Assembly: GCA_031384285.1 (NCBI GenBank)
Contig: JANNAJ010000346.1
Coordinates: 1-40,579 of the forward strand
From: Verrucomicrobiota bacterium
GTDB taxonomy: Bacteria > Verrucomicrobiota > Verrucomicrobiia > Limisphaerales > UBA9464
Reading direction: 5' to 3'
DNA length: 40,579 bases
Of the stretch, positions 2,709 through 40,263 are shown in pieces. Within the stretch, counting starts at the first letter, position 1. Every line of letters begins with the position of its first letter. The notes below the pieces were generated by a model that saw only the letters and a program-made list of their open reading frames with translations, did not search any database and was not told the origin of the DNA. The translations under genes and the position numbers were made by a program.

Positions 2709-2765
2709 CCGGTGTCCCGAGAAAGCCGGTTGAGCCCGGGCGGCGGGTCCCGGCATGTTCCGCCC

Positions 2766-3716
2766 ATGACCACGCCCGCCGTCAGCCGCCGCGATTTCCT
2801 CACGACCACCGGGCTCGCCACCGCGGGCGCGCTCGCCGGGTGCGCGACCGGCGACGGCCTCCCGGACGGGATCATCGACACGCACACGCACTTCTACGAC
2901 CCGACCCGGCCGCAAGGCGTGCCGTGGCCGTCCAAGGACGACCCGACGCTCTACCGTCCGGTGCTGCCCGCGGAGTACATCGCCATGGCGCGACCGCACG
3001 GCGTCACCGGCACCGTCGTGGTCGAGGCGAGCGCCTGGGTCGAGGACAACCAGTGGATCCTCGACATCGCCGAGCGCGAACCGTTCATCGTCGGCTTCGT
3101 CGGCCATCTCACCCCCGGCACGCCGGAGTTCGCCGGCCAGCTCGCGCGTTTCGCCAGGAACCCGCTCTACCGCGGCATCCGCATCGGCGGCGACCTCGTC
3201 CAACAGGCGTCGCGCGACGCGGGGACGCGGGACGACCTGCGGCGCCTCGCCGACCGCGGCCTCACGCTCGACGTGCTCGCCGGCCCCGACCAGATGCCCG
3301 CCGTGGCGACGCTCGCGGACACGCTGCGCTCCCTGACGATCGTCGTGGACCACGTCGGCAACGTCCCCGTCACGGCGGGGCCGCATCCGAAGGCCTGGGT
3401 CTCCGGCCTCGCCGCGTGCCACTACACGCCCAACGTGGTCATGAAGATCTCCGGCCTGGTCGAAGGATCCGGTCGCCGCGGCGGGAAGGCTCCGACCGAT
3501 CCGGGCTTCTACCGGCCCGTGCTGGATGTCGTCTGGAACATCTTCGGCGAAGACCGCCTGCTCTACGCGAGCAACTGGCCGGTGAGCGACCTCTTCGCAT
3601 CCTACGCCACGGTCCAGCGGATCACGCAGGACTACGTCTCAGGGAAAGGCCCGACGGCGGCGGCGAAGGTGTTCCGGAAGAACGCTCAGCGCGTCTACCG
3701 CTGCGTGAAGCGCTGA
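2766..3716 (+). CDS. amidohydrolase-2 (TIM-barrel metal-dependent hydrolase) family protein with Tat-type signal
   Basis: ATG at 2766 in frame in track ORF 2712..3716. MTTPAVSRRDFLTTTGLATAGALAGC is a twin-arginine signal that may also carry a lipobox. IIDTHTHFYDP and TIVVDHVGN are metal-ligand motifs of the Amidohydro_2 type. Confidence 0.8.
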   Translation: MTTPAVSRRDFLTTTGLATAGALAGCATGDGLPDGIIDTHTHFYDPTRPQGVPWPSKDDPTLYRPVLPAEYIAMARPHGVTGTVVVEASAWVEDNQWILDIAEREPFIVGFVGHLTPGTPEFAGQLARFARNPLYRGIRIGGDLVQQASRDAGTRDDLRRLADRGLTLDVLAGPDQMPAVATLADTLRSLTIVVDHVGNVPVTAGPHPKAWVSGLAACHYTPNVVMKISGLVEGSGRRGGKAPTDPGFYRPVLDVVWNIFGEDRLLYASNWPVSDLFASYATVQRITQDYVSGKGPTAAAKVFRKNAQRVYRCVKR

Positions 3717-3738
3717 GAGCCAACGCCCGTGGCGATGC

Positions 3739-4215
3739 TCAGACCGGCTTGACCGTCCAGCCGCCCCCCAGCAGCGGCACCGAGGCGCAAGCCGGACCGC
3801 CGTCCTTCGCGACCGCGTGGACGCGGGCTTCCAAGACACCGTCGGTCGTCGCGGCCCGCCCGATCTGCGCGGACGTCACATCGCGCAGGTGGACCTTGAT
3901 CCGCCGGAACATCTCGCGGTGCCCATATCTCTCGCTCGACCAGCTCAGGTAAAAGAACCGCTCACCCCGTTTGCCATGCACCGCGGTCCCGGCGAAATCC
4001 GGCGCCCCGTCGGGTCCTGCCTTCACCGCGACCTCCGTCGTCCAAGCGAGCGAGTCGGGACCTGCCGGAGTCCCCGCGACATGACCGTCCTTGGTCTGCA
4101 ACGTCACGCGGATGTCGTGGCGTCCGTCGCACCCCTCGAAGCGGTCCGACGGGAGGCCTTGGCACACGACGCGGAAGCGCGCGGCGGTCTTGGAAGCGGA
4201 GCGGGCGGAGGGCAT
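3739..4215 (-). CDS. conserved hypothetical protein (tentatively DUF5990-like)
   Basis: 158-aa track ORF with protein-like composition. FAGTAVHGKRGERFFYLSWS and RRIKVHL resemble small proteins I recall as DUF5990. The family name comes from memory only. Confidence 0.55.
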   Translation of the reverse strand: MPSARSASKTAARFRVVCQGLPSDRFEGCDGRHDIRVTLQTKDGHVAGTPAGPDSLAWTTEVAVKAGPDGAPDFAGTAVHGKRGERFFYLSWSSERYGHREMFRRIKVHLRDVTSAQIGRAATTDGVLEARVHAVAKDGGPACASVPLLGGGWTVKPV

Positions 4216-4313
4216 GGCTCAGAGGTCGACGGACTTCAGTCCACGAGGCCCAGCGGGTTGCTGCTGATGTTCATCGAAGGCGAGGAAATGCCGTTGGCCG
4301 GGCCGAGTGCGGG

Positions 4314-4583
4314 TCAAACTGGCTTGCCCGGCCACGCGCCGACCGCGCCTTTGCCCGGCGCTTTGGCGATCGGTTCGGTCGTCGGGTCGCTGAAGGCGAG
4401 AAGTACCGTCTCGGCCCGTCGCGCATCGCCGTCGGCGAGGTGCCTCATGGCGTCGCGGAAAGCCGGCAAGCGGAAATCGGCGTCGCCGGTACCGCGGTCC
4501 ACGCGGTCGAGGAACGCCGCGAGCTCGATGAGCTTGCACCGGGCATCCATGAAATAAAGGTCGAGCACTTGCTGGCGGGTCAT
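4314..4583 (-). CDS. hypothetical small protein (about 89 aa), divergent from copA
   Basis: Track ORF 4314..4631. The ATG at 4583 gives MTRQQVLDLYFMDARCKLIELAAFLDRVDR, a helical, protein-like sequence. An alternative GTG start lies at 4631. No recognisable family. Confidence 0.5.
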   Translation of the reverse strand: MTRQQVLDLYFMDARCKLIELAAFLDRVDRGTGDADFRLPAFRDAMRHLADGDARRAETVLLAFSDPTTEPIAKAPGKGAVGAWPGKPV

Positions 4584-4782
4584 AGGCGGGTGTGTGACGG
4601 CCGGAAGGTGGACCGCCTTCACGCGGGGCACAAGCGGGCGCGCGGGAGATCGGGGTGTCTTGTTCCCGCCCCCGACAACAGCCCATCAGATCCAATCGGA
4701 CCCACCCGAAGATCCATCGGCGGTCGGCTTTCGCCAGCAAACGATTTGCCCGCCTCCTCGCAGCGACCGACGCTGTCCGCCG

Positions 4783-7281
4783 ATGGCTACCGCTCCGATC
4801 CAGTTCCGCCCCCGGCCCACGCCGACGACGGTCGAACCCGCGGCGGTCGCTCCCACGGAGCTGGCCGTCGAAGGCATGGATTGCGGCAGCTGCGTCCAGC
4901 ATGTCGTGAAGGCTCTGCGCGAGGTCGAGGGCGTCGCGTCGGCGCAGGCGGAACTGACGAAAGCCCGGGCCACGGTCGTCTGGAAGACAGGGGCGGCACC
5001 CGACGCCGGAGCACTGGTCCGGTCGGTGAAGAGCGCCGGCTATGATGCGCGACCGGTCGCGCCGCCGGCCCCGGACGAATTCCTCGTCGAAGGGATGACC
5101 TGCGGCAACTGCGCGCAAGCCGTGCGGAAGGCGCTCAGCGGGATCCCCGGGGTCGCCAGCGCGCAGGTCGACCTCGCGAGCGGGAGCGCGAAGGTAGTCT
5201 GGTCGGACCCGTCCCGCGCGGATGCCGGAGCCGTCGTCGCCGCCGTGGCGAACGCCGGATATCGGGCCGCGAGCGTCTCCTCGGCCGCGACCGGCCCGGT
5301 TCCGCCGTCCTCGGCCGAGACCGCCTGGAAGCGCGCCGTGCTGCTCGGCGGACCGGTCACGGCCATGTTCATCATCGCGGAGTGGTTCCTCGGCCTGGGC
5401 ATGGACCGGACGTTCCATTGGATCGGGTTCGCGCTCGCCTTGCCGGTGCAGGTGGTGGTCGGCGCCGGGTTCTACCGCGGCGCGTGGCGGCAGCTGCGCG
5501 TGCGCCAAGCGAACATGGACACGCTCGTCGCGCTCGGATCCACCGCGGCGTTCGCGTTCAGCGTCTGGGGGGTGGCCACCGGGCAGCCCGGGCACCTGTA
5601 CTTCATGGAATCCGCTTCGATCCTCACGCTGGTCAGCGTCGGACATTGGGTCGAGGCGCGGATGAGCGCCAAGGCCGGCGCGTCGATGCGCTCGTTGCTC
5701 GATCTCGCGCCGAAGATGGCTCGGAAGCTCTCCGACGGCACCGAGACCGAGGTGCCCGTCGCCGATCTGCGGTCCGGCGACCTCATCGTGCTCAAGCCCG
5801 GCGACCGCGTGCCCGTCGATGCCGAGGTCGCGAGCGGCGCGTCGGCCGTGGACGAGGCGATGCTCACCGGTGAACCGTTGCCGGTCGACAAAACCGCCGG
5901 CGCGAAGCTGTTCGCCGGCACCATCAACCAGACCGGCCAGCTCGTGGGCCGCGTCACCGCCACCGGCGAGGCCACCGCGCTCGCCCATATCGTCGCCGCG
6001 GTGCGGCGCGCGCAGTCGAGCCGCGCGGACATCCAACGGCTCGCCGACCGCGTCAGCTCGGTCTTCGTGCCGGTGGTGCTGCTGGTCGCGGTGGCGGCGG
6101 CCGCGTGGTGGGGCCTGGCACCGGCTTCGGCCCGGGGCGTCCACGACGCCTTGGCGACGTTCCTCTGGCACGCACACGTCGACGGCTCGCCGCTCGCGAC
6201 GGCCGTGGGGATCGCGTGCGCGGTGCTCATCGTGGCGTGCCCGTGCGCGATGGGGCTCGCGACGCCGGCAGCGCTCATGGCGGGCGTCGACGCGGCGGCG
6301 CGGCACGGCATCTTGATCCGCGACGCGCAGGCGCTGGAGAAATCCGGCGACATCACGACGCTCGTCTTCGACAAGACCGGCACGCTGACCGAAGGGCGCC
6401 CGAAAGTCGTCGCCAGCGAGGATCTCCGGCCCGCTTCCGACCGCACCGTCCCGGTGGCCGAGATCGTCGCGTCGATGGCGCGGCGTTCGCAGCATCCGCT
6501 CAGCCGCGGCCTCGCGGCGCTCGCGCCCGGCGACCTGCCGGTCGAGGCCTGGCAGGAGGTGCGCGGCTCCGGTGTCTCGGCGCGGTGGTGGGGACGCGGT
6601 CTGCGGGTCGGGTCGGTGGCGTGGTTCCGCGACGAGGGCATCGACCTCGCGCCGGTCCGGTCGTTCCTCGACCATTGGCTGGCGGAGGGCGCGACCGTGG
6701 CCTTGCTGGTGGCCGACCGCGAGGTGTGGGGCGCCTTCGCGCTGCGCGACGAGCTGAAGCCGCGGGCCGCCGAGGTCGTGGCCCGGCTAGCGAGCGGCGG
6801 ACGCCGCATATTCCTGCTCACCGGCGACAACCGCCGGACCGCGGATGCCATCGCGCGCGAGGTCGGGATCGCCGCGGCGGACGTCTTCGCCGAGGTGCAT
6901 CCCGAGCAGAAGGCGGCGCACATCCGGCGGCTCCAGGACGAGGGCCGGCGGGTGGCCTTCATCGGCGACGGTCTGAACGATGGTCCGGCGCTCGCGCAGG
7001 CCGATCTCGGCATCGCGGTCTCCCGGGCGACCGACGTGGCGCGAGAAGCGGCGGACATCGTGCTTCTCCGCGCGGATCTCGCCGCGATCCCCGCCGCGCT
7101 CGACCTCGCGCAGGCGACGTTGCGGGTGATCCGCCAGAACTTGTTCTGGGCCTTCTTCTACAACGCGGCCGCGATCCCTCTCGCGGCACTCGGCTTCCTC
7201 AGCCCCGTCGTGTGCGCGCTGGCCATGGGCCTGAGCGATGTGGTGGTGATCGGGAACGCGCTGCGCTTGCGCCGGCGTTGA
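4783..7281 (+). CDS. copA: copper-translocating P1B-type ATPase with two N-terminal HMA domains
   Basis: ATG at 4783 in frame in track ORF 4594..7281. Two GMxCxxC metal-binding motifs (GMDCGSC, GMTCGNC), the transmembrane CPC motif (VACPCAMGLATP), DKTGTLT at the phosphorylation site, and GDGLNDGPAL. Confidence 0.95.
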   Translation: MATAPIQFRPRPTPTTVEPAAVAPTELAVEGMDCGSCVQHVVKALREVEGVASAQAELTKARATVVWKTGAAPDAGALVRSVKSAGYDARPVAPPAPDEFLVEGMTCGNCAQAVRKALSGIPGVASAQVDLASGSAKVVWSDPSRADAGAVVAAVANAGYRAASVSSAATGPVPPSSAETAWKRAVLLGGPVTAMFIIAEWFLGLGMDRTFHWIGFALALPVQVVVGAGFYRGAWRQLRVRQANMDTLVALGSTAAFAFSVWGVATGQPGHLYFMESASILTLVSVGHWVEARMSAKAGASMRSLLDLAPKMARKLSDGTETEVPVADLRSGDLIVLKPGDRVPVDAEVASGASAVDEAMLTGEPLPVDKTAGAKLFAGTINQTGQLVGRVTATGEATALAHIVAAVRRAQSSRADIQRLADRVSSVFVPVVLLVAVAAAAWWGLAPASARGVHDALATFLWHAHVDGSPLATAVGIACAVLIVACPCAMGLATPAALMAGVDAAARHGILIRDAQALEKSGDITTLVFDKTGTLTEGRPKVVASEDLRPASDRTVPVAEIVASMARRSQHPLSRGLAALAPGDLPVEAWQEVRGSGVSARWWGRGLRVGSVAWFRDEGIDLAPVRSFLDHWLAEGATVALLVADREVWGAFALRDELKPRAAEVVARLASGGRRIFLLTGDNRRTADAIAREVGIAAADVFAEVHPEQKAAHIRRLQDEGRRVAFIGDGLNDGPALAQADLGIAVSRATDVAREAADIVLLRADLAAIPAALDLAQATLRVIRQNLFWAFFYNAAAIPLAALGFLSPVVCALAMGLSDVVVIGNALRLRRR

Positions 7282-29254: not shown

Positions 29255-29890
29255 CTACCGTCCGGCCTTGGCCGGCAACGTCGCGGCGAGCGCGGCGACC
29301 GACTCCGCTGGTTCTTGGCCCAGGCCAGCTTGACGGTGGATGATCTCGCCCTCGGCGTTCAGCACCGTGATGACGTTGGAATGGGCGAACTGGCCGCGCG
29401 CATCGCGCTGATAGTTCACACCGAGCAGGACGGCGAGTTCGCGCACGTCGTCGGGCCGTCCCGTGAGCAGGGTCCAGTGGTCCGTGCCAAGGTGCATCTG
29501 CTCACGATAGGCGCGCAGGGCCTCGGGGGTGTCGCGTTCCGTATCGAAGCTGACGAGCACGAAATCCACACGGTCGCGCTGTTCCGGAGAGAGGGTCCGC
29601 TGGATCCGCTGGAGGTCGCTCACGATGATGGGACAGGCGGATTCGCAGCGGGTGAAGACCATGGCCAGCACCTGCGGGCGACCGCGCAGCACGCCGAGCT
29701 TCACCTTGCGGCCGACATCGGACGTCCACGTGGAATCGAGCAGATAAAGCGATCGGTCGGTGGGCGCGTTCGTGGCCAGCGCGGCGCGACAGCAGGGCGG
29801 CGGACGGGTCACGGAGGGCGTCGTGACCGGACCTGCCCGCAGGAGCATCACGGGACCGAAGGCGATGAACAACGCGAGAGAAGTCTTCAT
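29255..29890 (-). CDS. senC: SCO1/SenC family copper chaperone (thioredoxin fold)
   Basis: N-terminal signal peptide. The CxxxC copper motif in FTRCESACP and the downstream His (FAHSNVITVLN) are present. There is a 4-nt ATGA overlap with the upstream FGE-like gene. Confidence 0.85.
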   Translation of the reverse strand: MKTSLALFIAFGPVMLLRAGPVTTPSVTRPPPCCRAALATNAPTDRSLYLLDSTWTSDVGRKVKLGVLRGRPQVLAMVFTRCESACPIIVSDLQRIQRTLSPEQRDRVDFVLVSFDTERDTPEALRAYREQMHLGTDHWTLLTGRPDDVRELAVLLGVNYQRDARGQFAHSNVITVLNAEGEIIHRQAGLGQEPAESVAALAATLPAKAGR

Positions 29891-30849
29891 GGAGCGGGAG
29901 ACGGGCGGACAGGAGGCTCAGGCAGGTCCTGGGCGCAGCGGAAGCCGAGGTTGTGGACGGCGTACGGCGCTTGCAGGCTGCTGCGGAGACCGAAGCGGAG
30001 GAACGCGGCGTAGTCCGCCGGATTCTTCGCCGACTGCGAGCCGCTGCCGCAGAAGAGCCGCCGCTCAAGCCCCGCATCACCGCGCGCGTCGCCGGTGACC
30101 ATCGCGGTGTTGAAGTCCGACACCCACTCCCAGACAAGGCCGTGCAAGTCCAGCACGCCGAAACAATTCGCCCGGCCGCCGCCGACCGGGGGCAGACGCC
30201 CGGGTGACGGGGCCGAGTGCCAAGCGGCGATCTGTCTCTGGAAATCGGCGTCGTTCTCGCCGTCCGGGCGCGTGGGGCTCGCGGCGGCGGCGAGTTCCCA
30301 CTCGGATGTGGTGGGAAGACGCTTGCCCTTCCATGACGCGTAGGCCTTGGCCGCGAACCAAGAGACCTGGGTCACCGGGCTGTCCGCCGGCGAGGAGGCG
30401 CCCGGCTGCAGGTCGCCGGTCCAGTCCGCGAGATAATTGGCGTCCGCGAAGAGCCGCTTCACTTGCGACCGGCGCCAACGTGGGTTCGCGCGGACGAAAC
30501 CGAGGAAGTCGCCGTTCGTGACCGGCAACCGGTCCAGCGCGAATGCCTTGACCGGCACCTGCTTGGCGTCGGTCTGGCTGCCGAAGGGCGGCTGGTAGAC
30601 ACCGGCGGGCACGGCGACCATGCCCACCGGTGGGCGGGCATGCTCAGGACTTCCCGCTGCGAGCACCTTGGCGAAAGCCACGAGACAGGCGATGGACAAA
30701 ATCACGGCCGTCGACATCGCAAGCCCCGGCTTCGACGGAAGGGCCGCCGTCACCCAGCCTCCGCCCTGCGGCCGGCGGTGGACCGCCGGTCGCAGGGACA
30801 GCATCGGCGGCCTGTTCTTCTTGCGAAGAGGTTCTCCGATGGGGCTCAT
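29887..30849 (-). CDS. nirV: formylglycine-generating-enzyme (SUMF1) family protein, NirV-like
   Basis: RLPVTNGDFLGFV, KGKRLPTTSEWELAA, HGLVWEWVSDF and NLGFRCA are FGE-sulfatase domain hallmarks. It has an N-terminal hydrophobic anchor and starts 10 nt downstream of nirK, the position of nirV in other nirK loci. The start codon is uncertain (M1 at 30849 versus internal Met codons). Confidence 0.8.
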   Translation of the reverse strand: MSPIGEPLRKKNRPPMLSLRPAVHRRPQGGGWVTAALPSKPGLAMSTAVILSIACLVAFAKVLAAGSPEHARPPVGMVAVPAGVYQPPFGSQTDAKQVPVKAFALDRLPVTNGDFLGFVRANPRWRRSQVKRLFADANYLADWTGDLQPGASSPADSPVTQVSWFAAKAYASWKGKRLPTTSEWELAAAASPTRPDGENDADFQRQIAAWHSAPSPGRLPPVGGGRANCFGVLDLHGLVWEWVSDFNTAMVTGDARGDAGLERRLFCGSGSQSAKNPADYAAFLRFGLRSSLQAPYAVHNLGFRCAQDLPEPPVRPSPAP

Positions 30850-30859
30850 CGTCGGTGCC

Positions 30860-32401
30860 TCACTCGAAGGTGTTGGCCGGAGGAGGCGGGGCCTCGCTGC
30901 GGATGCGGCGGACCTCGGCGACGCTCACCGCGTCCCCGCTGTTGCCCCAACTGTTGCGCACGTAGGTGACCACGTTGGCGATGTCGTCATCGGGAAGATA
31001 GTTCAGCGGGATCATCGTGCCGCTGAACTTGGTCCCGTTGACGGTGACCTCGCCCGACATGCCTTGCAGCACGGCCCGCACGGAACGTTCCTTGTCCGCC
31101 ATCAGGAAGTCCGACTTGGCCAACGGAGGGATCTGCCCCGCGATGCCCTGCCCTTCGACCTGATGGCACACGAAACAGGTCTGCATGAAGACCTGCTTGC
31201 CCTTCTCGACCTGGATCTCCTTGGTCAGGCTGGCGATGCGCGGGTCGGTCTTGATGGCCTCCTTCATCTGAGCCTGCAACGACGCGACCTTCTTCTCCGA
31301 ATCGCTGCCCGCCTCGGCCTGGCGTCCGAGATACACCGCGTCGACCTCCTTGCCGGAATAGACGAGCAGGTCCTCCTTGCCGCTGACCTTCAGCATGCCG
31401 AGCGCGCCCTTGTTGAAGGCCCGGGAAAGCGAGTGGTCCACGATCACGAACGTGCCCGGCACCTGCACCTTGAAGTCGACGATGGCCGATCCGCCGGCCG
31501 GGACGAGCGTGGTCTGGACGTTCTGCTGCGACGCGACGGTGCCGCCCTCGGGATAGACACGGTCGAAGATCTCGCCGATGACGTGGAACGACGAGAGCAG
31601 GTTGGGCCCGCCGTTGCCGACGTAGAGCCGCACCGTCTCGCCGACTTTGGCCGTGATGGCCTTGTCGCCCACGAGCGCGCCGACGGATCCGTTGAAGACG
31701 ACATAGGTCGGCCGTTCGTCGATGGCCTTCTCCTGGTCGAAGGTCTGCAGGCCGGGCGTGCCGTATCTGCCGGTGGTGTAGACATCGCCCTGCATCACGT
31801 AGTATTCGCGGTCCACCTTCGGCAGCCCCTCCTTCGGCTCGACGAGGATGAGCCCGTACATGCCGTTGCCGATGTGCATGGGCACCGGCGCGGTCGCGCA
31901 ATGGTAGACGTAGAGGCCGGGGTTGAGCGCCTTGAACGAGAACCGGGACGAATGCCCCGGCGCGGTGAACGACGACGCGGCACCGCCGCCCGGCCCGGTG
32001 ACGGCGTGCAGGTCGATGTTGTGCGGCATCTTCGACGACGGATGGTTCGCAAGCGTGAACTCGACCAGGTCGCCCTCCCTCACCCGGATGAACAGGCCGG
32101 GGACCTCCCCTCCGAACGTCCAGAAAAGGTAGTCCACGCCGTCCGCCAACCGGCGCACGACCTCCTTCACCTCGACGTCGACGAGGACCTTGGTCGCGTG
32201 CCGTCGGGTGATCGGCGGCGGCACCATCGGCGCATGGGTGAGCACGGCCTTCTCCTCGCCCTGGATCTCCGGATCGATGACCTTGGGCGACGCGCCCGGG
32301 CTGTCGGCGGCGAGCGCGGTGGATGCCAGCAAAAGGCCGGACAAGAACTTGGCCCAGCGCGCGGCGCGCGCTGGCGATGATTGGTGGGGCGGGTTCTTCA
32401 T
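30860..32401 (-). CDS. nirK: copper-containing nitrite reductase (AniA-like class) with a fused C-terminal class I cytochrome c domain
   Basis: ATG at 32401 (MKNPPHQ..., signal-like [16 protein letters not shown]) inside track ORF 30860..32629. Motifs are [15 protein letters not shown] and [35 protein letters not shown] (type 1 and type 2 Cu ligands). The C-terminal CFVCH haem motif is followed by a distal Met region. Confidence 0.93.
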
Positions 32402-32493
32402 GGTGGTGGGTCTTCCGATCTTCGTTGCCGGCCGGACGTCGCCGGCCGCGGTTGTGGATCTGGGTTGGCGGGCGCGGTCCGGCCACGACGGGG

Positions 32494-32889
32494 TCATGCC
32501 GTCAGCGGGATGCGGCCGGCCGCGGGCGGGTGGGGTGCCGGAATCGGCCCCCCGGGTCTCGCCAAGGTCAGCAGCATCGAGAAGCGTTCCGTCGCCTTCA
32601 CGGCATGGAGCAGGCCGGGCGGCATCCACACGAGGTCGCCGGATCCCAGCGCGCGCGCGACGCCGCCGAGCGTCACCTCGCAGGAGCCGGACAGCACCTG
32701 GATGAGCGCTTGTTGCGTCGACGTGTGCTCGGTGAGCTCTTGGCCGGCCGCGAAGCCGAACAGCACGACACGCAGGTCGGGCGTGCTGAGCAACGTGCGG
32801 CTCACGATGCCTTGGTCGGCATACCGGGTCTCCAGCGGCAACGAGAGCACGCCGGGCCGGTCCGATGAGAACGACGGGGAAGTCTGCAC
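32494..32889 (-). CDS. cupin-2 domain protein, first gene of the nirK operon
   Basis: This is the 3' part of track ORF 32494..33438. [25 protein letters not shown] and [16 protein letters not shown] are cupin motifs 1 and 2. The start is assigned to the in-frame GTG at 32889, 41.5 bp from the box centre. An alternative GTG lies at 32850. The upstream part of the ORF overlaps the GYD gene and regulatory DNA. Confidence 0.7.
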
Positions 32890-32923
32890 GTCCCCAGCTT
32901 GGGGTGCCCGGACCGGACCCGCC

Positions 32924-32937
32924 TTGATGCGGGTCAA
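32924..32937 (-). promoter_or_regulatory. Crp/Fnr (Dnr/ANR-type) box TTGATGCGGGTCAA, centred 41.5 bp from the cupin GTG
   Basis: The 14-mer matches TTGAT-N4-GTCAA. Its centre at 32930.5 minus 41.5 gives 32889. CAAGCT lies at -12..-7 on the minus strand. Confidence 0.7.
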
Positions 32938-32967
32938 GGCTCCGTCATCCGGCCTCGCACCGATGTC

Positions 32968-32981
32968 TTGACCGCCGTCAA
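32968..32981 (+). promoter_or_regulatory. Crp/Fnr-type box TTGACCGCCGTCAA (perfect half-site dyad), centred 41.5 bp from the GYD ATG
   Basis: TTGAC and GTCAA form a perfect inverted repeat. The centre at 32974.5 plus 41.5 gives 33016. CACATT lies at -12..-7. Confidence 0.7.
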
Positions 32982-33015
32982 CGCGCGGGCCGCCGCCATC
33001 GCGCACATTCCGCGC

Positions 33016-33303
33016 ATGCCCACTTACATCGCGTTGCTCCGCTTCACCGAAGCCGGCGCCAAAGACATCGGACATTCCGTCTCCCGCGCCCTCGCCTTCG
33101 ACGACATCGCAAGGAAGGCCGGAGTCAAGATCGTGGGCCAGTGGTGGACCCTGGGCCGCTACGACGGCGTCCTGGTGCTGAGCTGCGACGACGGCACCCG
33201 GATCGGTCGTCTGTTGGCGGAGCTCAACGCGGGCGGGAGCGTCCGCTGCGAGACGACACCGGCCTACGACAGCGAGGAGTTCGCCGCGCTGGTCCGCCGC
33301 TGA
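33016..33303 (+). CDS. GYD domain-containing protein (95 aa)
   Basis: ATG at 33016 inside track ORF 32899..33303. MPTYIALLRFTEAGAKDI...QWWTLGRYDGVLVL has the typical GYD-family length and motif. Confidence 0.8.
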   Translation: MPTYIALLRFTEAGAKDIGHSVSRALAFDDIARKAGVKIVGQWWTLGRYDGVLVLSCDDGTRIGRLLAELNAGGSVRCETTPAYDSEEFAALVRR

Positions 33304-33356
33304 GAAGAACCGACCCACTCCACGGCGGTCCTGCGCTTCCCGGCGGTGTCGACCGC

Positions 33357-34172
33357 TCAATCGGCCCGCCGGTCGGCCTGCTGGGCGGCCTGCTGGGCGG
33401 CCCGGCGCAGGGTCTCCACGAAGGCGACCAGATCCCAACGTTCGCCCTCGGTGGTCGCCTCCGAGAAGCTGGGCATCGGAGTGCCGTTCAGGCCGGTGAC
33501 CAGCGCCTTGTAGATGTCCCGCGGGCCGGGCCCGCTGCCGATCGAGGGCAGGCCGAGGTCCCGAGGTCTGGCCGGTCGGCCGAGATCATCTTCCAGGTTC
33601 CCAGCGGAGGGGCCGTCGCCCTTGCCTTCCGTGCCGTGGCAGGCCGCGCAGGCACGCACGAAGAACGCCTTTCCCCGGACCGCGTGCCGGTCGTGCTCGA
33701 CGGGGTCGGACATCCAGCCCGGAGCCTCGGGGATGGCGACCGGCGCAGCGAAGTTCTGCGGCTTGTCCCAACGCGAGGAGAACGACTTCACGTAGGCGAC
33801 GACCGAACGCACCTCCCGGTCGCCCAGTTGCGCGAACACGGGCATCGCGCTGCCGTAGACCCCGCCGCGGATCGTGCGCTCCAGATCGGCGTCGGACGGG
33901 AGCGCTCCCGACGGCGTGCTGCGGTACTTGAAGACGCCGGCGGAGAACTTCCGCGGACGCGGGAGCATCCCTTTCGCCATCTCGCCGTCGCCGTCGCCCC
34001 AGCGCCCGTGGCAGACCTGGCAATTCCGTTCGTAGACGAAGCGGCCTTCCGGGATGAGCGACATCTCCGGCGGACGGAACCACGACGGAGCGGCCTCCGC
34101 GGCCGCGGCACCCGTCGCGAGGAAAAACGCGCAAAACGCGCACCAGATCGTTGTCCTCAGGCGAAAGCTCAC
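33357..34172 (-). CDS. dihaem c-type cytochrome (two class I-like domains), secreted
   Basis: GTG start at 34172 and a signal peptide (TTIWCAFCAFFLATGAAAA). Two CxxCH motifs (CQVCH, CAACH) are each followed by a G..G..MP region that supplies the Met ligand. Confidence 0.85.
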   Translation of the reverse strand: MSFRLRTTIWCAFCAFFLATGAAAAEAAPSWFRPPEMSLIPEGRFVYERNCQVCHGRWGDGDGEMAKGMLPRPRKFSAGVFKYRSTPSGALPSDADLERTIRGGVYGSAMPVFAQLGDREVRSVVAYVKSFSSRWDKPQNFAAPVAIPEAPGWMSDPVEHDRHAVRGKAFFVRACAACHGTEGKGDGPSAGNLEDDLGRPARPRDLGLPSIGSGPGPRDIYKALVTGLNGTPMPSFSEATTEGERWDLVAFVETLRRAAQQAAQQADRRAD

Positions 34173-34382
34173 GAGACGGAGACCGCGACCAGCTCAACGA
34201 GCACCCTCGCGACGATCTCCGTGCCGAGCCCGGAGCGGGCGTCGCGGTCTTGACGGATCCAGCCCGCGGGTATCGGCGTCGGCCTAGGTTGCATGTCCGA
34301 CAGCAGACCCGTGTGCGAAGATCCCGTCCACCCGCGGCTTGCCCGACACCGCTCCGCGATTGCGCGCCCCGGGAAGGAAGCA

Positions 34383-34396
34383 TTGATCAAAGTCAA
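34383..34396 (+). promoter_or_regulatory. Crp/Fnr-type box TTGATCAAAGTCAA, centred 41.5 bp from the porin ATG
   Basis: The centre at 34389.5 plus 41.5 gives 34431. CACCGT lies at -12..-7. Confidence 0.7.
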
Positions 34397-34430
34397 TGCG
34401 GCGGCAGCCGGGGTCCGGCACCGTGCCTCC

Positions 34431-35900
34431 ATGAAACCACTGGCCGTCCTCAGCCTCGTCGCCGCTCTTTCCCCGGCGGTCGCTGTCGCCCAGACCGCCA
34501 CGGCCGCCGCGGCGCCCTTGGCACCCTCCTCGGAAGGGCTCGCCAACGACTGGCTCCGGCAACAGAGCGGCACCTTCAGCGCGTGGGATATCGGCGGACA
34601 GTTCCGCGCCCGCTTCGAGCACCGTGGGCACGCCGCGATCCCCGGTTCGCCGGGCGCGATCGATTTCCGCGACCATGGCGCCGATACGGGCAACACCTAC
34701 GAGCTCTTCCGCACGACGCTCCATCTCGGGTATGCGCCGACCGCGTGGGCCGGTGTCCGTGTCGAGGGGCGCGACAGCTTCTCGCTCCACGACGACCGTG
34801 TCCCGGACCCGGAATCGGACCGCACCGAGCTGCACCAGGCCCACCTCCGGCTCGGCGATCCGGCCGGCTTCCCGCTCAGCGCGAAGATCGGGCGCCAAGA
34901 GCTGAGCTACGGCGACGAACGCCTGGTCGGTGCCTTCGACTGGAACAACGTCGGACGCGTCTTCGACGCGGCGAAGCTGCGCTACGAGGACCGCGACGTC
35001 TGGGTGGACGCCTTTGCCGGACGCGTGGTCGTCCCGGACGACCACAACCTCGATCTGGCCAACGATTACGACTGGTTCTCCGGCATCTACGCCTCGTCGG
35101 CTACCCTCGTCCCGTTCCAGGAGACCCAGGCCTACCTGCTCGCCCGCAACACAGGGACGGGATCGCCGACGACGCTGGGCGCCGGTCTGCCCGCGACCAT
35201 GACCGGCGCCAGCCCGCGGGACATCTACACGGTCGGCATCCGGATGAGGTCGCTGCCCGGGAAACTGCGCGGCTGGGACCACAGCTTCGAGGCCGCCGGC
35301 CAGTTCGGGCGCTTCAAGGACACCGTCGCCGGACCGAGCCTGTCGCAACTGGCTTTCGCCACCCACATCGCCGGCGGATACACCTTCGCCGATCTTCCGG
35401 CGTCGCCGCGGCTCGGGCTCGAGCACGATCACTCTTCCGGCGACAGCGATCCGACCGACGGCCGGCACGGCACCTTCGACAACCTTTTCCCCACGAACCA
35501 CCGCTTCTACGGGCACATGGACTTCGCCTCGTGGCAGAACCTCCACGACCTCCGCGCCTCCGCTTCGGCGAAGCCGGTCAAACGGCTGCTCCTCGCGCTC
35601 GACTGGCATGCCTTCTGGCTCGCCGACACGCATGACAGCTTCTACCAGGTCAACGGCGCGCGCCGCACCGGCCAGGTCGCGGGACCGGGGACCGGCTACG
35701 GGATCAACCCGGCCTTCGACAGCTACATCGGCCAAGAAGCGGACCTCACCGCGACCTGGACGCTCCGGCCGTGGGCGACGTTGCAGGCCGGCTACGGGCA
35801 CTTCTTCGTCGGCGGCTATATCGAGCGATCGCTCGCCTCGCCGGGGTTCGGAGCGACCGACGCGGACTTTTTCTTCACGCAGGCGACGCTCTCGTTTTGA
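34431..35900 (+). CDS. alginate-export (AlgE-like) family outer-membrane beta-barrel porin
   Basis: ATG at 34431 (MKPLAVLSLVAALSPAVAVAQ signal peptide) inside track ORF 34293..35900. RLGRQELSYGDERLVG..DWNNVGR.FD and a C-terminal ...FFFTQATLSF (terminal aromatic residue) are typical of the alginate_exp family. Confidence 0.85.
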   Translation: MKPLAVLSLVAALSPAVAVAQTATAAAAPLAPSSEGLANDWLRQQSGTFSAWDIGGQFRARFEHRGHAAIPGSPGAIDFRDHGADTGNTYELFRTTLHLGYAPTAWAGVRVEGRDSFSLHDDRVPDPESDRTELHQAHLRLGDPAGFPLSAKIGRQELSYGDERLVGAFDWNNVGRVFDAAKLRYEDRDVWVDAFAGRVVVPDDHNLDLANDYDWFSGIYASSATLVPFQETQAYLLARNTGTGSPTTLGAGLPATMTGASPRDIYTVGIRMRSLPGKLRGWDHSFEAAGQFGRFKDTVAGPSLSQLAFATHIAGGYTFADLPASPRLGLEHDHSSGDSDPTDGRHGTFDNLFPTNHRFYGHMDFASWQNLHDLRASASAKPVKRLLLALDWHAFWLADTHDSFYQVNGARRTGQVAGPGTGYGINPAFDSYIGQEADLTATWTLRPWATLQAGYGHFFVGGYIERSLASPGFGATDADFFFTQATLSF

Positions 35901-35921
35901 ACGCCGGTCCCCGTCCTTGCC

Positions 35922-36164
35922 ATGCCACCGCTCGACCGATTCCGCCGCCTCGACGTCCGAAGGCTGCTCGCCCGGGGCATCGAACCCTTGCCCGCGGTCC
36001 GGAAGCGCCTTGCCGCGCTCCAGGACGGCGAAGGATTGCTCCTGCTCGCGCCCTTCCTGCCGTCGCCGCTCATCGAGCTTCTCGGCGGCGAAGGCTTCAC
36101 GTCGAAGGTCGAGCGGGGCGACGCCTCGGATTGGTTGGTGTTCATCTGGCGGGCCGTTCCGTAA
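35922..36164 (+). CDS. DUF2249 domain-containing protein (80 aa)
   Basis: Track ORF. LDVRRLLARGIEPLPAVRKRLAALQDGEGLLLLAPFLPSPLIELL fits the DUF2249 pattern (the region of LDVR..P through P.PL). It starts 21 nt after the porin stop. Confidence 0.75.
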   Translation: MPPLDRFRRLDVRRLLARGIEPLPAVRKRLAALQDGEGLLLLAPFLPSPLIELLGGEGFTSKVERGDASDWLVFIWRAVP

Positions 36165-36174
36165 CATCGCCGCG

Positions 36175-36900
36175 ATGCCCGCCCCCGCTGAAGCGCTGAA
36201 GCACGCCGCCGTCGTCCACACGCTCCGGACGAGCCAGCTCTTCAGCGGATTGCCCATGGCCGACCTCGAGGCGATCTCCTCACTGGTCAGCAGCAGGTCG
36301 CTCGACAAGGGCAGCTATCTTTTCCACGAAGGCGACCCGTCCTCCGGTTTCTATCTCGTCCAGCGCGGCGCGGTGAACGTCCACCGCGTCAACGCCGCCG
36401 GCAAAGAGCAGGTCATCCACGTCTTCCGGGCCGGCGACACCTTCGCCGAGGTGTCGCTCGTCACGCCGGACGGCTATCCTGCCGAAGCCCGGGCCATCGA
36501 GCCGTCCCAGGTGCTGCTCGTGCAGAAGGCGGGTTTCCTCGCCTTGCTCCGGCACCGGCCCGAGCTCGCGTTGCGCATGCTCGCCTCCATGAGCTCGCAC
36601 CTGCGCGTGCTGGTCGCCCAGCTCGAGGACCTCACCCTCAAGGACGTGGAGACGCGCCTCGCCAACTGGCTGCTGCAGCGGTGCCCCGACCCCGCCGCCG
36701 CCGGCCCCGTGGCGATCGAGCTCAGGTCCACCAAACGTGTGCTCGCCGCCGAGCTCGGCACCGTGAGCGAGACCCTTTCGCGCACGCTCGCGAAGTTCCG
36801 CGGCCAAGGCCTGCTGGAGGTGAAGGCCGGGACGCTCGTGGTCCGGGAGCCCCGTCAGCTCCGGGCCCTGCTCCGCCGCCATCTCGGCGAAGCTGCGTGA
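36175..36900 (+). CDS. Crp/Fnr family transcriptional regulator, Dnr/NnrR-like (no N-terminal Cys cluster)
   Basis: ATG at 36175 inside track ORF 35608..36900. The cNMP-binding-type beta-roll is LFHEGDPSSGFYLVQRGAVNV...GDTFAEVSL. The C-terminal HTH is LAAELGTVSETLSRTLAKF, carrying the E-x-x-S-R recognition motif of FNR-type proteins. The protein has only one Cys. Confidence 0.88.
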   Translation: MPAPAEALKHAAVVHTLRTSQLFSGLPMADLEAISSLVSSRSLDKGSYLFHEGDPSSGFYLVQRGAVNVHRVNAAGKEQVIHVFRAGDTFAEVSLVTPDGYPAEARAIEPSQVLLVQKAGFLALLRHRPELALRMLASMSSHLRVLVAQLEDLTLKDVETRLANWLLQRCPDPAAAGPVAIELRSTKRVLAAELGTVSETLSRTLAKFRGQGLLEVKAGTLVVREPRQLRALLRRHLGEAA

Positions 36901-36955
36901 CGCCGCGACGCTTGCCGCAGATGTCCACGGCTGCTCTCGTCGCGGCGTTCTCCGC

Positions 36956-37915
36956 ATGACCTTCCCGACCCTCGCCAAGTTCTTTCGCGCGGCAGCGGTC
37001 TGCGCGGTCGTGTCGATCGCGACGGCGCAGGAGCCGGTGGACACCGGGTCCGCCCCGATGCCCCCGAAGGTCGGACCGCTCCAGGCGCCGGGGATCGACA
37101 ATCTCTTCCGCGCGACCGACCGCATCTATTCCGGTAGCCGACCCGAAGGCGACGAGGCCTTCGCCTCGCTGCGGAAGCTCGGGGTGAAGACGATCCTCTC
37201 GGTGGACGGCACCCGGCCCGACGTGGAACGCGCCGCGAAATTCCAGCTGCGCTACGTCCATATCCCGCTCGGCTACGACGGCATCCCGGCGGAGACGGCG
37301 GCGCGCTTGACCCAAGCGGCGCGGACGCTGGAAGGCCCCGTCTTCGTCCACTGCCATCACGGCAAGCACCGCGGTCCCGCGGCCGTCGGCGTGATCTGCC
37401 AGGCCACCGCCGGCTGGACGCCGGACCAAGCCGTCGCCTGGATGAAGCAGGCAGGCACCTCGCCGGATTACGCCGGACTCTACCGCGCCAACGCCGGGTT
37501 CCACATGCCCACGGCTGAGGATCTCGCGCGCGTGCCGGACGCTTTCCCGTCCCGTGCCGAAGTGTCCGGCCTCGTCGACGCCATGGTCGCGATCGACCAT
37601 CGTTGGGACGACCTGAAGGCCGTGCAAAAGGCCGGCTGGCGCGTCCCGCCGGGCCGACCCGACCTCATCCCTGCGACCGAGGTGCTGCTGTTGCAAGAGG
37701 CCTATCGCGAACTCCAGCGCGATGCCTTGGCACAGGCCAAGGGCGACACGTTCCTCGGACTTCTCCGCAAAGCGGAATCCGACGCAAAGGACCTGCACGC
37801 CCTGCTCGGTTCCAGCGCGACGACGCTCGACGAGGCCGCCCACCGGCAAGCCGACGCTCTGTGGAAAGCGGCAGGCGAGGCCTGTGCCGGGTGCCACAAG
37901 AAGTTCCGGAACTGA
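36956..37915 (+). CDS. secreted fusion protein: Cys-X5-Arg (PTP/DSP-like) phosphatase-fold domain plus a cytochrome c-prime-like four-helix haem domain
   Basis: Signal peptide MTFPTLAKFFRAAAVCAVVSIATA/QEP. VFVHCHHGKHRG is an HCX5R P-loop (Cys at nt 37352-37354). The helical C-terminal ~120 aa end in CAGCHKKFRN, the C-terminal CxxCHxx(F/Y)R signature of class II cytochromes c (nt 37883-37897). Confidence 0.75.
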   Translation: MTFPTLAKFFRAAAVCAVVSIATAQEPVDTGSAPMPPKVGPLQAPGIDNLFRATDRIYSGSRPEGDEAFASLRKLGVKTILSVDGTRPDVERAAKFQLRYVHIPLGYDGIPAETAARLTQAARTLEGPVFVHCHHGKHRGPAAVGVICQATAGWTPDQAVAWMKQAGTSPDYAGLYRANAGFHMPTAEDLARVPDAFPSRAEVSGLVDAMVAIDHRWDDLKAVQKAGWRVPPGRPDLIPATEVLLLQEAYRELQRDALAQAKGDTFLGLLRKAESDAKDLHALLGSSATTLDEAAHRQADALWKAAGEACAGCHKKFRN

Positions 37916-38078
37916 CCGGATCGTCCGCGGCTGCCATCGCCGTGGATCTTGCATGCTTCGCATGCATCCGGTCCGCGGTCTCAATCGTTGGAACCTGCGA
38001 CATGCGTTCCGCCACGCATCGCTTGCCGGGCCGGCCTGATCCTGACTTCCTTTGACCATCCACCCGGGGCAGCGATGG

Positions 38079-38092
38079 CGGAAACGTTTCCG
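38079..38092. promoter_or_regulatory. perfect 14-bp palindrome CGGAAACGTTTCCG upstream of the TonB-dependent receptor (candidate operator)
   Basis: Exact dyad symmetry, 87-100 nt upstream of the ATG at 38179. No cognate regulator was identified. Confidence 0.3.
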
Positions 38093-38178
38093 TAGCTGTC
38101 GTGCGGGTGGCTTTTTGCTGCCCGAACGTTGAAAAACCTGCGTCGCCGGTCCGCGTGCGGACGACCGGCACGGGCACC

Positions 38179-40263
38179 ATGAACAAACGAAACTCCGTCC
38201 GTCCGGTCGCCGGCCTCGCCGGCCTGCTCCTCCCCGCGCTGCTCCTCGCGCACGAGCCCGAGGTGATGCAGAAACAGGTCGTCACCGGGCGCGCCGATCC
38301 GTTGTTGGCGATCGCCGCGGCGAGCAGCGAGGGCTACGTCGGCCGCGACCATCTCGATCTCCGGCCGCTGCTCCGGCCAGGCGAAGTGCTGGAGACGGTT
38401 CCCGGGCTTCTCGCGACGCAGCACAGCGGCGCGGGCAAGGCGAACCAGTACTTCCTCCGCGGCTTCAACCTCGACCACGGGACCGATTTCGCGACGTCGC
38501 TCGACGGCGTGCCGGTGAACCTCCCGACACACGCCCACGGCCAAGGCTACACCGACCTCAACTTCCTCATCCCGGAACTCGTCGAGACCGTCCACTACCG
38601 CAAGGGGCCCTACTACGCGGACGTCGGTGATTTCGGGTCCGCCGGCGCGGCCGATCTAAGCTACGCGAAGACTCTCGACGGAGGGCTCGCGCAGCTCGAA
38701 GCAGGCTCGTTCGGATACGCGCGCGGTGTGTTCGCCGGCTCCGGCAAGACCGGTCCGGGGAACCTGCTCTACGGCCTGGAACTGGCGCACGACGACGGCC
38801 CGTGGACGAATCCTCAGGACTACCAGAAGATCAACGGCGTCCTCCGCTACAGCCAAGAACACGACGGCACCGGCTTCGACGTGACCGCGCTCGCCTACGC
38901 AGGCCGTTGGGATTCGACCGACCAGGTGGCCCGGCGCGCGCCGATCGGTCGCTACGACGCGCTCGACGATTCCGACGGCGGCGAGTCGAAGCGCTTCAGC
39001 CTCGCCGCCGCTTGGCATCACGAGACCGACTCGGGCCACACCGAGGCCCAGGTCTATGGCGTTTATTACGACCTGGACCTGTTCTCGAACTTCACCTACT
39101 TCCTCGCCGACCCGGTCCGCGGCGACCAGTTCGAGCAGCACGACCGTCGCGGCTTCGGCGGGCTGAAGGCGCACCATACCTGGAAGCACGAACTGGCCGG
39201 GCACGAGATGGAGGACACCGTCGGGATCCAGGTGCGCGGCGACCACATCGAGAACGGGCTGGACGCGACGGAACGCCGCCAGCTCCTCTCGACGACGCGC
39301 GCCGACACCGTGGGCGAGATCAGCATCTCGCCCTACGTGCAGGACCTGACGCGGTGGGGAGACAAGCTCCGCTCCACCCTCGGCGCGCGCGTGGACCACT
39401 ACCGCTTCGACATCCGTTCCGACAACCCGGCCAACAGCGGGACCAAGGACGCCACCTTGGCCAGCCCGAAAGCCGCCCTTGTGATCGGACCGTGGGCCGA
39501 CACGGAGTTCTATCTGGACGGCGGGCTCGGCTTCCACAGCAACGACGGCCGCGGAGCGACCACGACGGTCGATCCGGCGACCGGCGCGGCGACGACCCCG
39601 GTGGATCCGCTCGCGCGGACCTACGGCGCCGAGTTCGGGATCCGCACCCTCGCCGTGAAGGACCTGCAGAGCACGGTGTCCGTGTGGTGGCTCGACATCG
39701 ATTCCGAGCTGCTCTTCGTCGGCGACGCGGGCAGCACCGAAGCGAGCCGCCCGAGCCGCCGCTATGGGATCGAGTTCGCCAACTACTACACGGCCACGAA
39801 GTGGCTCACGCTCGACGTCGACCTGAGCGGGTCCCGGGCCCGGTTCCGCGACGCCGATCCGGCCGGACGGGAGATCCCGGGCAGCATCGAGACCGTTGTC
39901 GCGGCCGGCGTCAGCGTGCACGACCATCCGGCACTGAAAGGCTTCTTCGCCAGCCTGCGCCTCCGCTACTTCGGGCCGCGCCCGTTGATCGAGGACGATT
40001 CCGTCCGCAGCGCCGGCACGCTGATGCTCAACGCGCAGGCGGGCTACCGTTTCAACGCCGATTGGACGCTCGCGGTGGAGGCCTTCAACCTGCTCGACCG
40101 GAAGGACAGCGACATCGACTACCTGTACTCCTCGCGTCTGCGCGGGGAGGCCATCAACCCGGCAGACCCTCGCTACGACGCGGGATCCGGAGGCTACAAC
40201 GACATCCATTCGCATCCCGTGGAGCCGCTCTCCGCGCGGGTCGTGCTGACGGCCCGGTTCTGA
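38179..40263 (+). CDS. TonB-dependent outer-membrane receptor
   Basis: ATG at 38179 (signal peptide MNKRNSVRPVAGLAGLLLPALLLA) inside track ORF 38101..40263. The plug-domain motif is PGLLATQHSGAGKANQYFLRGFNLDHGTDF. A long beta-barrel ends in ...VVLTARF (terminal Phe). Confidence 0.9.
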   Translation: MNKRNSVRPVAGLAGLLLPALLLAHEPEVMQKQVVTGRADPLLAIAAASSEGYVGRDHLDLRPLLRPGEVLETVPGLLATQHSGAGKANQYFLRGFNLDHGTDFATSLDGVPVNLPTHAHGQGYTDLNFLIPELVETVHYRKGPYYADVGDFGSAGAADLSYAKTLDGGLAQLEAGSFGYARGVFAGSGKTGPGNLLYGLELAHDDGPWTNPQDYQKINGVLRYSQEHDGTGFDVTALAYAGRWDSTDQVARRAPIGRYDALDDSDGGESKRFSLAAAWHHETDSGHTEAQVYGVYYDLDLFSNFTYFLADPVRGDQFEQHDRRGFGGLKAHHTWKHELAGHEMEDTVGIQVRGDHIENGLDATERRQLLSTTRADTVGEISISPYVQDLTRWGDKLRSTLGARVDHYRFDIRSDNPANSGTKDATLASPKAALVIGPWADTEFYLDGGLGFHSNDGRGATTTVDPATGAATTPVDPLARTYGAEFGIRTLAVKDLQSTVSVWWLDIDSELLFVGDAGSTEASRPSRRYGIEFANYYTATKWLTLDVDLSGSRARFRDADPAGREIPGSIETVVAAGVSVHDHPALKGFFASLRLRYFGPRPLIEDDSVRSAGTLMLNAQAGYRFNADWTLAVEAFNLLDRKDSDIDYLYSSRLRGEAINPADPRYDAGSGGYNDIHSHPVEPLSARVVLTARF

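Follow-up and report, generated by a model that had tools for sequence, protein, structure and literature searches.

The closest described relative of the protein analysed here is TpbA (PA3885) of Pseudomonas aeruginosa (PDB 4R0S, 2M3V), a periplasmic dual-specificity phosphatase (DSP) made of a single domain without haem. In TpbA, Cys132 is the nucleophile, Arg138 the P-loop arginine and Asp105 the proposed general acid (PMC4409338). The gene under study lies on contig JANNAJ010000346.1 of a Verrucomicrobiota bacterium (GenBank assembly GCA_031384285.1), of which we analysed a stretch of 40,579 nucleotides, hereafter the window. It encodes a likely exported protein in which a TpbA-like fold of the protein tyrosine phosphatase (PTP) class is followed by a class II c-type cytochrome domain. 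The described relatives of this second half are the class II cytochromes c (the cytochromes c-prime 3VRC, 1BBH and 1E83 and the low-spin cytochrome c-556 1S05) and cytochrome b562, with which it has the four-helix bundle in common. The class II cytochromes known so far are small, free-standing proteins of 12-14 kDa, whereas here one would be a domain of an enzyme. Both folds are thus familiar, but in the literature and databases that we searched we found no description of the two joined together, of the invariant HCHHGxHRG loop or of the Glu-bearing cytochrome helix. Our preferred reading, to which we assign a probability of roughly 0.4, is that the protein is a haem-redox-gated periplasmic Cys phosphohydrolase.

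The open reading frame (ORF) begins at the earliest possible start codon of its frame and matches the window in base composition (G+C 0.69 for the gene, 0.665 for the window). The first 24 residues, MTFPTLAKFFRAAAVCAVVSIATA, resemble a signal peptide, with basic residues, a hydrophobic core and an A-x-A site; cleavage is likely after ATA, leaving QE at the start of the mature protein. The leader was modelled by AlphaFold2 as a detached helix (aa 4-24), and a comparable hydrophobic leader is found in 226 of 246 full-length family members. These export calls come from a leader heuristic applied to the sequence and not from a dedicated signal-peptide predictor, and on this basis the fusion protein, like TpbA, is likely exported, via a Sec-type leader. 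A lipoprotein anchor was ruled out on reading the sequence, the AAVC around Cys16 not fitting a lipobox.

The kinship of the N-terminal domain with TpbA was recovered both by sequence and by structure. A phmmer search of PDB sequences matched TpbA with an E-value of 1e-8 across aa 33-169 (about 25% identity). The full-length AlphaFold2 model, built on an alignment of 67 sequences, has a mean predicted local distance difference test score (pLDDT) of 91.4 and a predicted template modelling score (pTM) of 0.77, and its N-terminal half has the alpha-beta fold of DSPs and PTPs. When this model was submitted to Foldseek, TpbA ranked first (template modelling score, TM, of 0.73 on the target, probability 1.0, E 2.8e-7), followed by Cdc14, DUSP23/VHZ, Siw14, DUF442 and VHR. 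In the alignment with TpbA, Cys133 corresponds to Cys132, Arg139 to Arg138 and Asp108 to Asp105, and the two proteins have an HCxHGxxR P-loop in common. They differ in that TpbA does not have the invariant His134/His138/Tyr107 set of the fusion family, which is found in bacteria of the Planctomycetes-Verrucomicrobia-Chlamydiae (PVC) group and not in Pseudomonas.

Conservation was counted over 201 family members. Cys133, His134, Gly136, His138, Arg139 and Tyr107 are each present in all of them, His132 and His135 in 200 and His102 in 199. The four DSP active-site loops (S59-G60-P63; H102..Y107; the P-loop; G167-T168..Y172-G174-L175) are near-invariant, which suggests that the family acts on one specific substrate. 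The presence of Cys133, Arg139 and the P-loop Gly in every member argues for a catalytic N-terminal domain and against a dead one. At the other end of the protein, C310, C313 and H314 occur in 201 members and R318 in 200. Since the catalytic and haem-site residues are kept in 200-201 of the 201 members, such conservation tells us that the P-loop and the terminal CAGCHKKFRN are not chance occurrences. The preliminary description of this locus, made from its letters alone, had proposed a cleavable signal peptide, a domain of about 140 aa with a Cys-X5-Arg P-loop and a class II cytochrome hallmark, CxxCHxx(F/Y)R, at the C-terminus; the first is likely from the results above, which bear out the second, and the third is borne out by those that follow.

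The AlphaFold2 model of the C-terminal half is a bundle of four helices (205-225, 239-261, 264-286 and 293-318) with the CxxCH on helix D near the C-terminus. CAGCHKKFRN forms the final ten residues of the protein, and in class II cytochromes c the CxxCHxx(Y/F)R motif likewise stands at the extreme C-terminus. A profile of 37 C-domains compared with the PDB matched the cytochromes c-prime 3vrc (E 7e-5), 1bbh (E 1.6e-4) and 5b3i (E 1.4e-3), the CxxCH aligning with that of all three, and also matched cytochrome b562 and cytochrome c-556. The Pfam family Cytochrom_C_2 was matched by 33 of 37 members at E <= 0.1 (best 1.4e-9), while the window protein alone scored 16.3 bits, under the Pfam gathering threshold of 26.5. 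A model of the domain alone reached a pLDDT of 91.3, and its top Foldseek matches were cytochromes c-prime and cb562 (TM about 0.6-0.7); their E-values exceeded 0.1 and were non-significant, as is usual for small helical bundles, and we treat them as consistent with the assignment only.

What distinguishes this bundle from that of a cytochrome c-prime is a methionine. Met210 is found in all 201 members while its neighbours vary. The model has it close to where helix A begins, with His314 four residues before helix D ends. In a global MAFFT alignment Met210 coincides with Met7 of cytochrome b562, an axial ligand, and with Leu16 of the A. xylosoxidans cytochrome c-prime, the distal residue over the iron, and His314 with b562 His102 and c-prime His120; the alignment is a lead only. 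With the same c-prime sequence, hhalign gave a probability of 92% on helix D, but the hhalign alignments to b562 and to c-prime both covered helix D only, so that Met210 was not placed. The Met7/His102 pair of cytochrome b562 has the same geometry as Met210/His314. Cytochromes b562 and c-556, like the fusion family and unlike cytochromes c-prime, have a Met at the axial position, and the distal residues of genuine cytochromes c-prime vary. As Met210 is invariant and aligned with the axial Met of b562, its role as sixth ligand is the best explanation, and the haem is probably six-coordinate, with His314 and Met210 as ligands, in place of the open five-coordinate site of a cytochrome c-prime.

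This bears directly on an explanation in line with the preliminary description, in which the domain is a five-coordinate cytochrome c-prime that binds nitric oxide (NO) or carbon monoxide (CO) and thereby gates or nitrosates the Cys domain, the protein being a Dnr-controlled accessory of denitrification or NO stress. Similarity to cytochromes c-prime and a CxxCHxxYR motif with its proximal Arg speak for such a role, but the probable His/Met ligation weakens the premise of NO or CO binding, as does the contrast between an invariant axial Met and the variable distal position of true cytochromes c-prime. Haem sensors that work by displacement of a Met ligand exist, and gas sensing is conceivable even with an invariant Met. 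The functions put forward in the preliminary description, among them an NO-gated phosphatase and a thiol-processing enzyme, are likewise conceivable. Taken with the gene-context evidence given below, we consider this explanation unlikely.

The two domains appear to be rigidly linked and coupled. The linker between them is modelled as ordered, with pLDDT values of 96 for the block 191-200 and 87 for the block 201-210, in keeping with the pTM of the two-domain model given above. Covariation was assessed by mean-field direct-coupling analysis (DCA) of 349 sequences (effective number, Meff, 271). The intradomain contacts that it returned are plausible, including beta-strand pairs (I47-F130, V101-L125) and bundle pairs (Y250-A306, I213-Y250, R251-E274). 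The top interdomain pairs were A173-L244 (rank 9 overall), W162-V207, D171-N319, S59-D214 and H183-L245, which join the alpha4-alpha5 and S59 loops lining the active site to helix A near Met210, to a face of helix B and to the C-terminus by His314. By these pairs, the end of the bundle that carries the haem would pack against the loops around the active site. One and two turns beyond L244/L245 on helix B are E248 (198/201), E252 (199/201) and R255 (196/201), all conserved in more than 97% of members and, in comparison with class II cytochromes c, specific to the fusion family; we infer from the covariation that E248 and E252 project towards the active site.

We favour a Cys-dependent phosphohydrolase because the proteins that come closest in sequence and fold are true phosphatases, because Cys133, Arg139 and usually Asp108 are retained, and because TpbA provides a precedent for a periplasmic DSP. 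The enzyme would act on a specific, conserved periplasmic phospho-substrate, and the gate on its activity would be the redox state of the haem that it carries; a gate in the form of a displaced Met ligand is less likely. Dephosphorylation would thereby be coupled to how oxidised or reduced the periplasmic electron-transfer chain is, the His314/Met210 haem acting as a redox-active centre and not as a gas-binding site. Gating might operate by setting whether the low-pKa Cys133 is oxidised, or by repositioning the interface residues E248 and E252, one of which could possibly serve as general acid/base in members that do not have Asp108. Redox regulation is a classic feature of Cys-dependent phosphatases and to our knowledge has always come from diffusible oxidants; a phosphatase fold rigidly joined to a haem would, if our reading is right, be the first case of hard-wired redox regulation.

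Several observations weigh against a phosphohydrolase. Every PTP-family Pfam match of the window protein falls below its gathering threshold, the best being PTP-SAK with 17.3 bits against a cut-off of 27, and no NCBIfam model fits the protein. Residue 140, directly after the P-loop Arg, is Gly in 192 of 201 members (96%), Ser in eight and Ala in one, whereas PTPs almost always have at this position a Ser or Thr, which assists hydrolysis of the phospho-cysteine intermediate; TpbA has Thr (HCKHGNNRTG). The general-acid Asp108 is kept in 186 of 201 members (92.5%) and is otherwise G, N, S or E. The picture is that of a Cys/Arg centre which, judging from conservation, differs from canonical phosphatases at two mechanistically relevant positions and carries in addition a family-specific invariant set of His, Tyr and Glu residues. 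Moreover, fused periplasmic c-type cytochromes are usually the electron-transfer modules of redox enzymes, and no phospho-substrate, kinase or conserved partner gene was evident in about 85 neighbourhoods.

Some of these points would be accommodated if the protein were instead a Cys-based redox enzyme or a sulfur- or oxyanion-processing enzyme, forming an adduct on Cys133 and using the haem as a one-electron relay to periplasmic cytochromes. Its substrate could be thiosulfate or persulfide, as in the DUF442 sulfurtransferases, or arsenate or arsenite, as in the PTP-fold arsenate reductases. Non-hydrolytic Cys chemistry is known on PTP folds, for example in the DUF442 thiosulfate sulfurtransferase of Blh (PMC5823870). 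The DUF442/Blh N-terminal domain (TIGR01244) resembles our protein in its PTP-like fold, its catalytic Cys and a weak similarity seen with hidden Markov models (HMMs; E 9e-4 and 6e-3 for Blh and TIGR01244) and with Foldseek, where the DUF442 structure 3gxg was found. These matches score far under threshold, with 18.2 bits against a cut-off of 625 for Blh, 15.5 against 26.1 for Pfam BLH_phosphatase and 16.6 against 85.85 for the sulfurtransferase model TIGR01244. Blh also differs in being cytoplasmic and fused to a persulfide dioxygenase, whereas our protein is fused to a cytochrome and has no sulfur-oxidation family among its recurrent neighbours. A redox enzyme would account for the Gly in place of the Ser or Thr needed for phospho-Cys hydrolysis, for an Asp108 dispensable in about 7% of members, and for the (near-)invariant H102, Y107, H134, H135, H138, E248 and E252, which go beyond the needs of a phosphatase. 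A low-spin His/Met haem, if that is what the protein holds, is a typical electron-transfer configuration, its apparent position against the active site would suit a relay, and c-cytochromes fused to periplasmic enzymes generally serve redox chemistry. A dihaem cytochrome c gene is adjacent in the window and in its two nearest relatives (loci L005 and L006), with a 48% identical homologue in a fourth locus (L058). On the other side, TpbA, to which the protein is closest in both sequence and fold, is a genuine phosphatase, a one-electron haem fits awkwardly with two-electron thiol/disulfide chemistry, and persulfide dioxygenase, SQR, sox, ars and aio genes are not recurrent among the roughly 75 flanking ORFs examined on each side. 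The second cysteine, C148, is conserved in 169 of 201 members (84%), on which ground a backdoor-cysteine mechanism was also downgraded. On balance we find a redox enzyme of this kind possible though doubtful; it would mean that a PTP fold had been recruited for electron-transfer chemistry.

A related proposal, which we put forward tentatively, is that a composite active site is formed at the domain interface by the His-rich P-loop, the two cytochrome Glu residues and the His/Met c-haem. Such a site might oxidise or reduce an oxyanion or sulfur species bound to the Cys. Alternatively, the haem might drive the catalytic Cys through reversible oxidation or nitrosation, making it a hard-wired redox switch. 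If true, this would be the first catalyst of the PTP fold to contain an electron-transfer cofactor of its own.

The PFA-DSP/Siw14 inositol-pyrophosphate phosphatases (Pfam Y_phosphatase2) are a further point of comparison. They gave weak HMM (E 0.008), sequence and Foldseek matches, all below threshold, and their P-loop, CKRGKHR, is similarly basic to the CHHGKHR of the fusion protein. They differ in being haem-free enzymes of the eukaryotic cytosol, and a polyanionic substrate is the most that the resemblance suggests.

The fusion is widespread. An exhaustive search of representatives of 50%-identity clusters returned 824 proteins at E <= 1e-30 and 3099 at E <= 1e-3, the best 150 of these matches all covering both domains. 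A word-indexed search gave 2467 matches, of which the best 120 are nearly all 290-345 aa long and carry both motifs, and relatives are encoded in at least 548 stretches of a collection of species-representative genomes. Among the matches listed, most are from Verrucomicrobiota (Limisphaerales, Pedosphaera, Chthoniobacterales) and Planctomycetota (Singulisphaera, Tautonia, Paludisphaera, Gemmataceae), with a few from Armatimonadota, Abditibacteriaceae and Hydrogenedentales; the nearest is L005, with 87% identity for the fusion protein and 80-97% for its neighbours. Source databases call the members 'protein-tyrosine phosphatase family protein', 'cytochrome c' or 'hypothetical', and many carry the JGI label 'DUF442 family'. 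A homologue in the cultured Singulisphaera acidiphila DSM 18658 (WP_015247758, UniProt L0DHA6) bears one or other of the first two names. We found no literature on a fusion of a PTP fold with a class II cytochrome, which agrees with the earlier statement that no characterised protein of this architecture is known. The periplasmic biochemistry of Verrucomicrobiota and Planctomycetota is poorly known, and a large family is concentrated there, for which cultured strains make direct testing possible.

Some divergent members depart from the common plan. P0233 has an extra N-terminal DUF2231 membrane domain and P0238 an extra domain resembling DUF1080/3-keto-disaccharide hydrolases, the latter retaining the HRG of the P-loop. 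HRS replaces HRG in P0233, P0262 and P0276, and E248 and E252 are missing as well from P0233 and P0262. Six contigs of the survey, from metagenome-assembled genomes (L021, L022, L023, L024, L028 and L082) bear labels that include Bifidobacteriaceae, Bifidobacterium sp., Akkermansia muciniphila and Alcaligenaceae, which are probably binning or taxonomy errors.

Gene order around the fusion gene in the window is as the preliminary description had given it, with a porin, DUF2249, a Dnr-like regulator and the fusion gene in succession and nirK nearby. From this arrangement a link to denitrification had been drawn, which the comparison across relatives does not uphold. The case for it is that a Crp/Fnr regulator and DUF2249 precede the fusion gene, that nirK-nirV lie next to this array, that FNR-type boxes are present (at 32924, 32968 and 34383), and that L005 has the same arrangement. 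However, when the NirK, DUF2249 and porin proteins of the window were used as tblastn queries against 84 loci, full-length matches were obtained solely in L005, and the Crp/Fnr regulator was found in L005 and as a remnant in L006. L006, with 85% identity, has lost by deletion about 2.3 kb that comprised the porin gene, DUF2249 and most of crp, while the fusion gene and the sequence upstream of it are intact. At the junction (6480-7000, compared with window 34100-36965) the 5' region of the porin gene is fused to the last 190 nt or so of crp, and the FNR-type box of L006 is degenerate (TCGATCAATGACGA). In the roughly 80 other loci neither nirK nor a Dnr-type regulator nor DUF2249 is near the fusion gene, the contexts being unrelated to that of the window, and no family-wide pointer to NO emerged among the loci surveyed. 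We regard the nirK/Dnr neighbourhood as a lineage-specific accident of gene order that is uninformative about the function of the family.

Nor did any other neighbour prove to be conserved. De novo clustering of the ORFs of 85 loci yielded none, the recurrent clusters being abundant PVC paralogues (DUF1559/prepilin-like proteins, Ser/Thr kinases, ECF sigma factors, DUF1501 and PSCyt). In a bulk Pfam analysis of the nearest flanking ORFs (74 downstream and 76 upstream), no family was present in more than four members and no sulfur-oxidation family was among the recurrent ones listed. The Pfam-labelled contexts of five further homologues are mutually unrelated. The neighbourhoods are thus heterogeneous, and the fusion gene is effectively stand-alone.

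The clustering of five (near-)invariant His, one Cys and two Glu residues at the P-loop and the interface allows one more explanation, namely that the His-rich P-loop and E248/E252 form a site for Cu, Ni, Co or Fe and that the protein is a periplasmic metallochaperone or a haem-fed metal reductase. Genes that could be read in the same sense are a TonB receptor adjacent to the family gene in the window and in L021, L055 and L073, HupE/UreJ genes in L021 and L023, and the copper nitrite reductase near the fusion gene in the window. This TonB or HupE/UreJ association concerns only about five of 85 loci, though, and no metal-binding family of Pfam or NCBIfam was matched. PTP P-loop side chains mostly face away from the anion hole, and Arg139 and the DSP active-site architecture are conserved as for oxyanion binding. 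We therefore hold a metal-handling role to be very improbable.

Table 1. Features of the fusion gene and its surroundings in the window
Feature	Position	Strand	Basis or remark
Fusion gene, complete ORF, 319 aa and stop	36956..37915	+	likely exported PTP-fold/class II cytochrome c fusion protein; full-length homologues exist
Signal-peptide-like leader, aa 1-24	36956..37027	+	read from sequence
TpbA-like dual-specificity/PTP-fold domain, aa 40-190	37073..37525	+	TpbA matches by sequence and Foldseek; sub-threshold Pfam PTP families
General-acid-type loop HIPLGYDG, aa 102-109; D108 aligned to TpbA Asp105	37259..37282	+	alignment and conservation
P-loop VHCHHGKHRGP, aa 131-141; nucleophile Cys133, Arg139, in-loop His 134/135/138, Gly140	37346..37378	+	sequence and conservation
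Ordered interdomain linker, aa 191-204	37526..37567	+	high pLDDT
Class II four-helix-bundle c-type cytochrome domain, aa 205-319	37568..37912	+	model, profile, Pfam, Foldseek
Met210 codon, axial/distal haem position, probable sixth ligand	37583..37585	+	conservation and alignment
Helix-B segment EAYRELQR, aa 248-255; near-invariant E248, E252, R255	37697..37720	+	conservation and covariation; interface role putative
Haem attachment and proximal-ligand motif CAGCHKKFR (C310, C313, H314, R318)	37883..37909	+	sequence, profile alignment, conservation
FGE-sulfatase/NirV-like gene	29887-30849	-	
NirK-cytochrome c fusion	30860-32629	-	copper nitrite reductase TIGR02376, E 3e-106; C-terminal class I cytochrome c domain
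ORF with cupin domain	32494-33438	-	Pfam tested on 32494-33000
GYD-domain ORF	32899-33303	+	
Dihaem cytochrome c	33357-34172	-	
FNR/Dnr-type box TTGATCAAAGTCAA	34383..34396	+	about 35 nt before likely porin start 34431; head of porin-DUF2249-crp-fusion array
Alginate_exp porin	34431-35900	+	
DUF2249	35922-36164	+	
Crp/Fnr-family regulator	36175-36900	+	55 nt upstream of the fusion gene; possibly co-transcribed with it
TonB-dependent receptor	38101-40263	+	

Boxes of the FNR/Dnr type (TTGAT-N4-ATCAA with 1-2 mismatches) number 17 in the whole window, against 4.4 expected from shuffles. Two of them, at 32924-32937 and 32968-32981, lie upstream of nirK; none stands directly upstream of the fusion gene in the 55-nt gap, a further point against the NO-based explanation, and no terminator-like site was found in that gap. 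A short gap without a terminator, together with a box at the head of the array (Table 1), makes it plausible that the fusion gene is co-transcribed with the upstream Crp/Fnr gene and co-expressed at low oxygen or during denitrification in this host. Given this local arrangement, expression under low-oxygen or denitrifying conditions is probable in the host lineage. A sigma-70-like promoter was not found in 32400-38300, and Rfam returned nothing on the window, hence no riboswitch before the TonB receptor.

A porin of the same Pfam family as that of the window, Alginate_exp, lies in L085 (7105-8481), 109 nt downstream of the family gene and on the same strand, and a phosphate-selective Porin_O_P is encoded two genes downstream in P0040. 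A porin association is not general, neither porin family being among the recurrent families of about 75 loci. Between nirK and the dihaem cytochrome c gene of the window, the predicted cupin and GYD ORFs, with putative start codons, overlap on opposite strands. The TonB receptor of the window gave only sub-threshold NCBIfam matches as to its type. Orthologues 50-55% identical to it adjoin the family gene in the distant loci L021, L055 and L073 (neighbourhood coordinates 2006-5011 and 7954-9182 in L021 and 3245-5233 in L055); L021 has two HupE/UreJ metal-permease genes besides its TonB gene, and HupE/UreJ genes are also near the family gene in L023.

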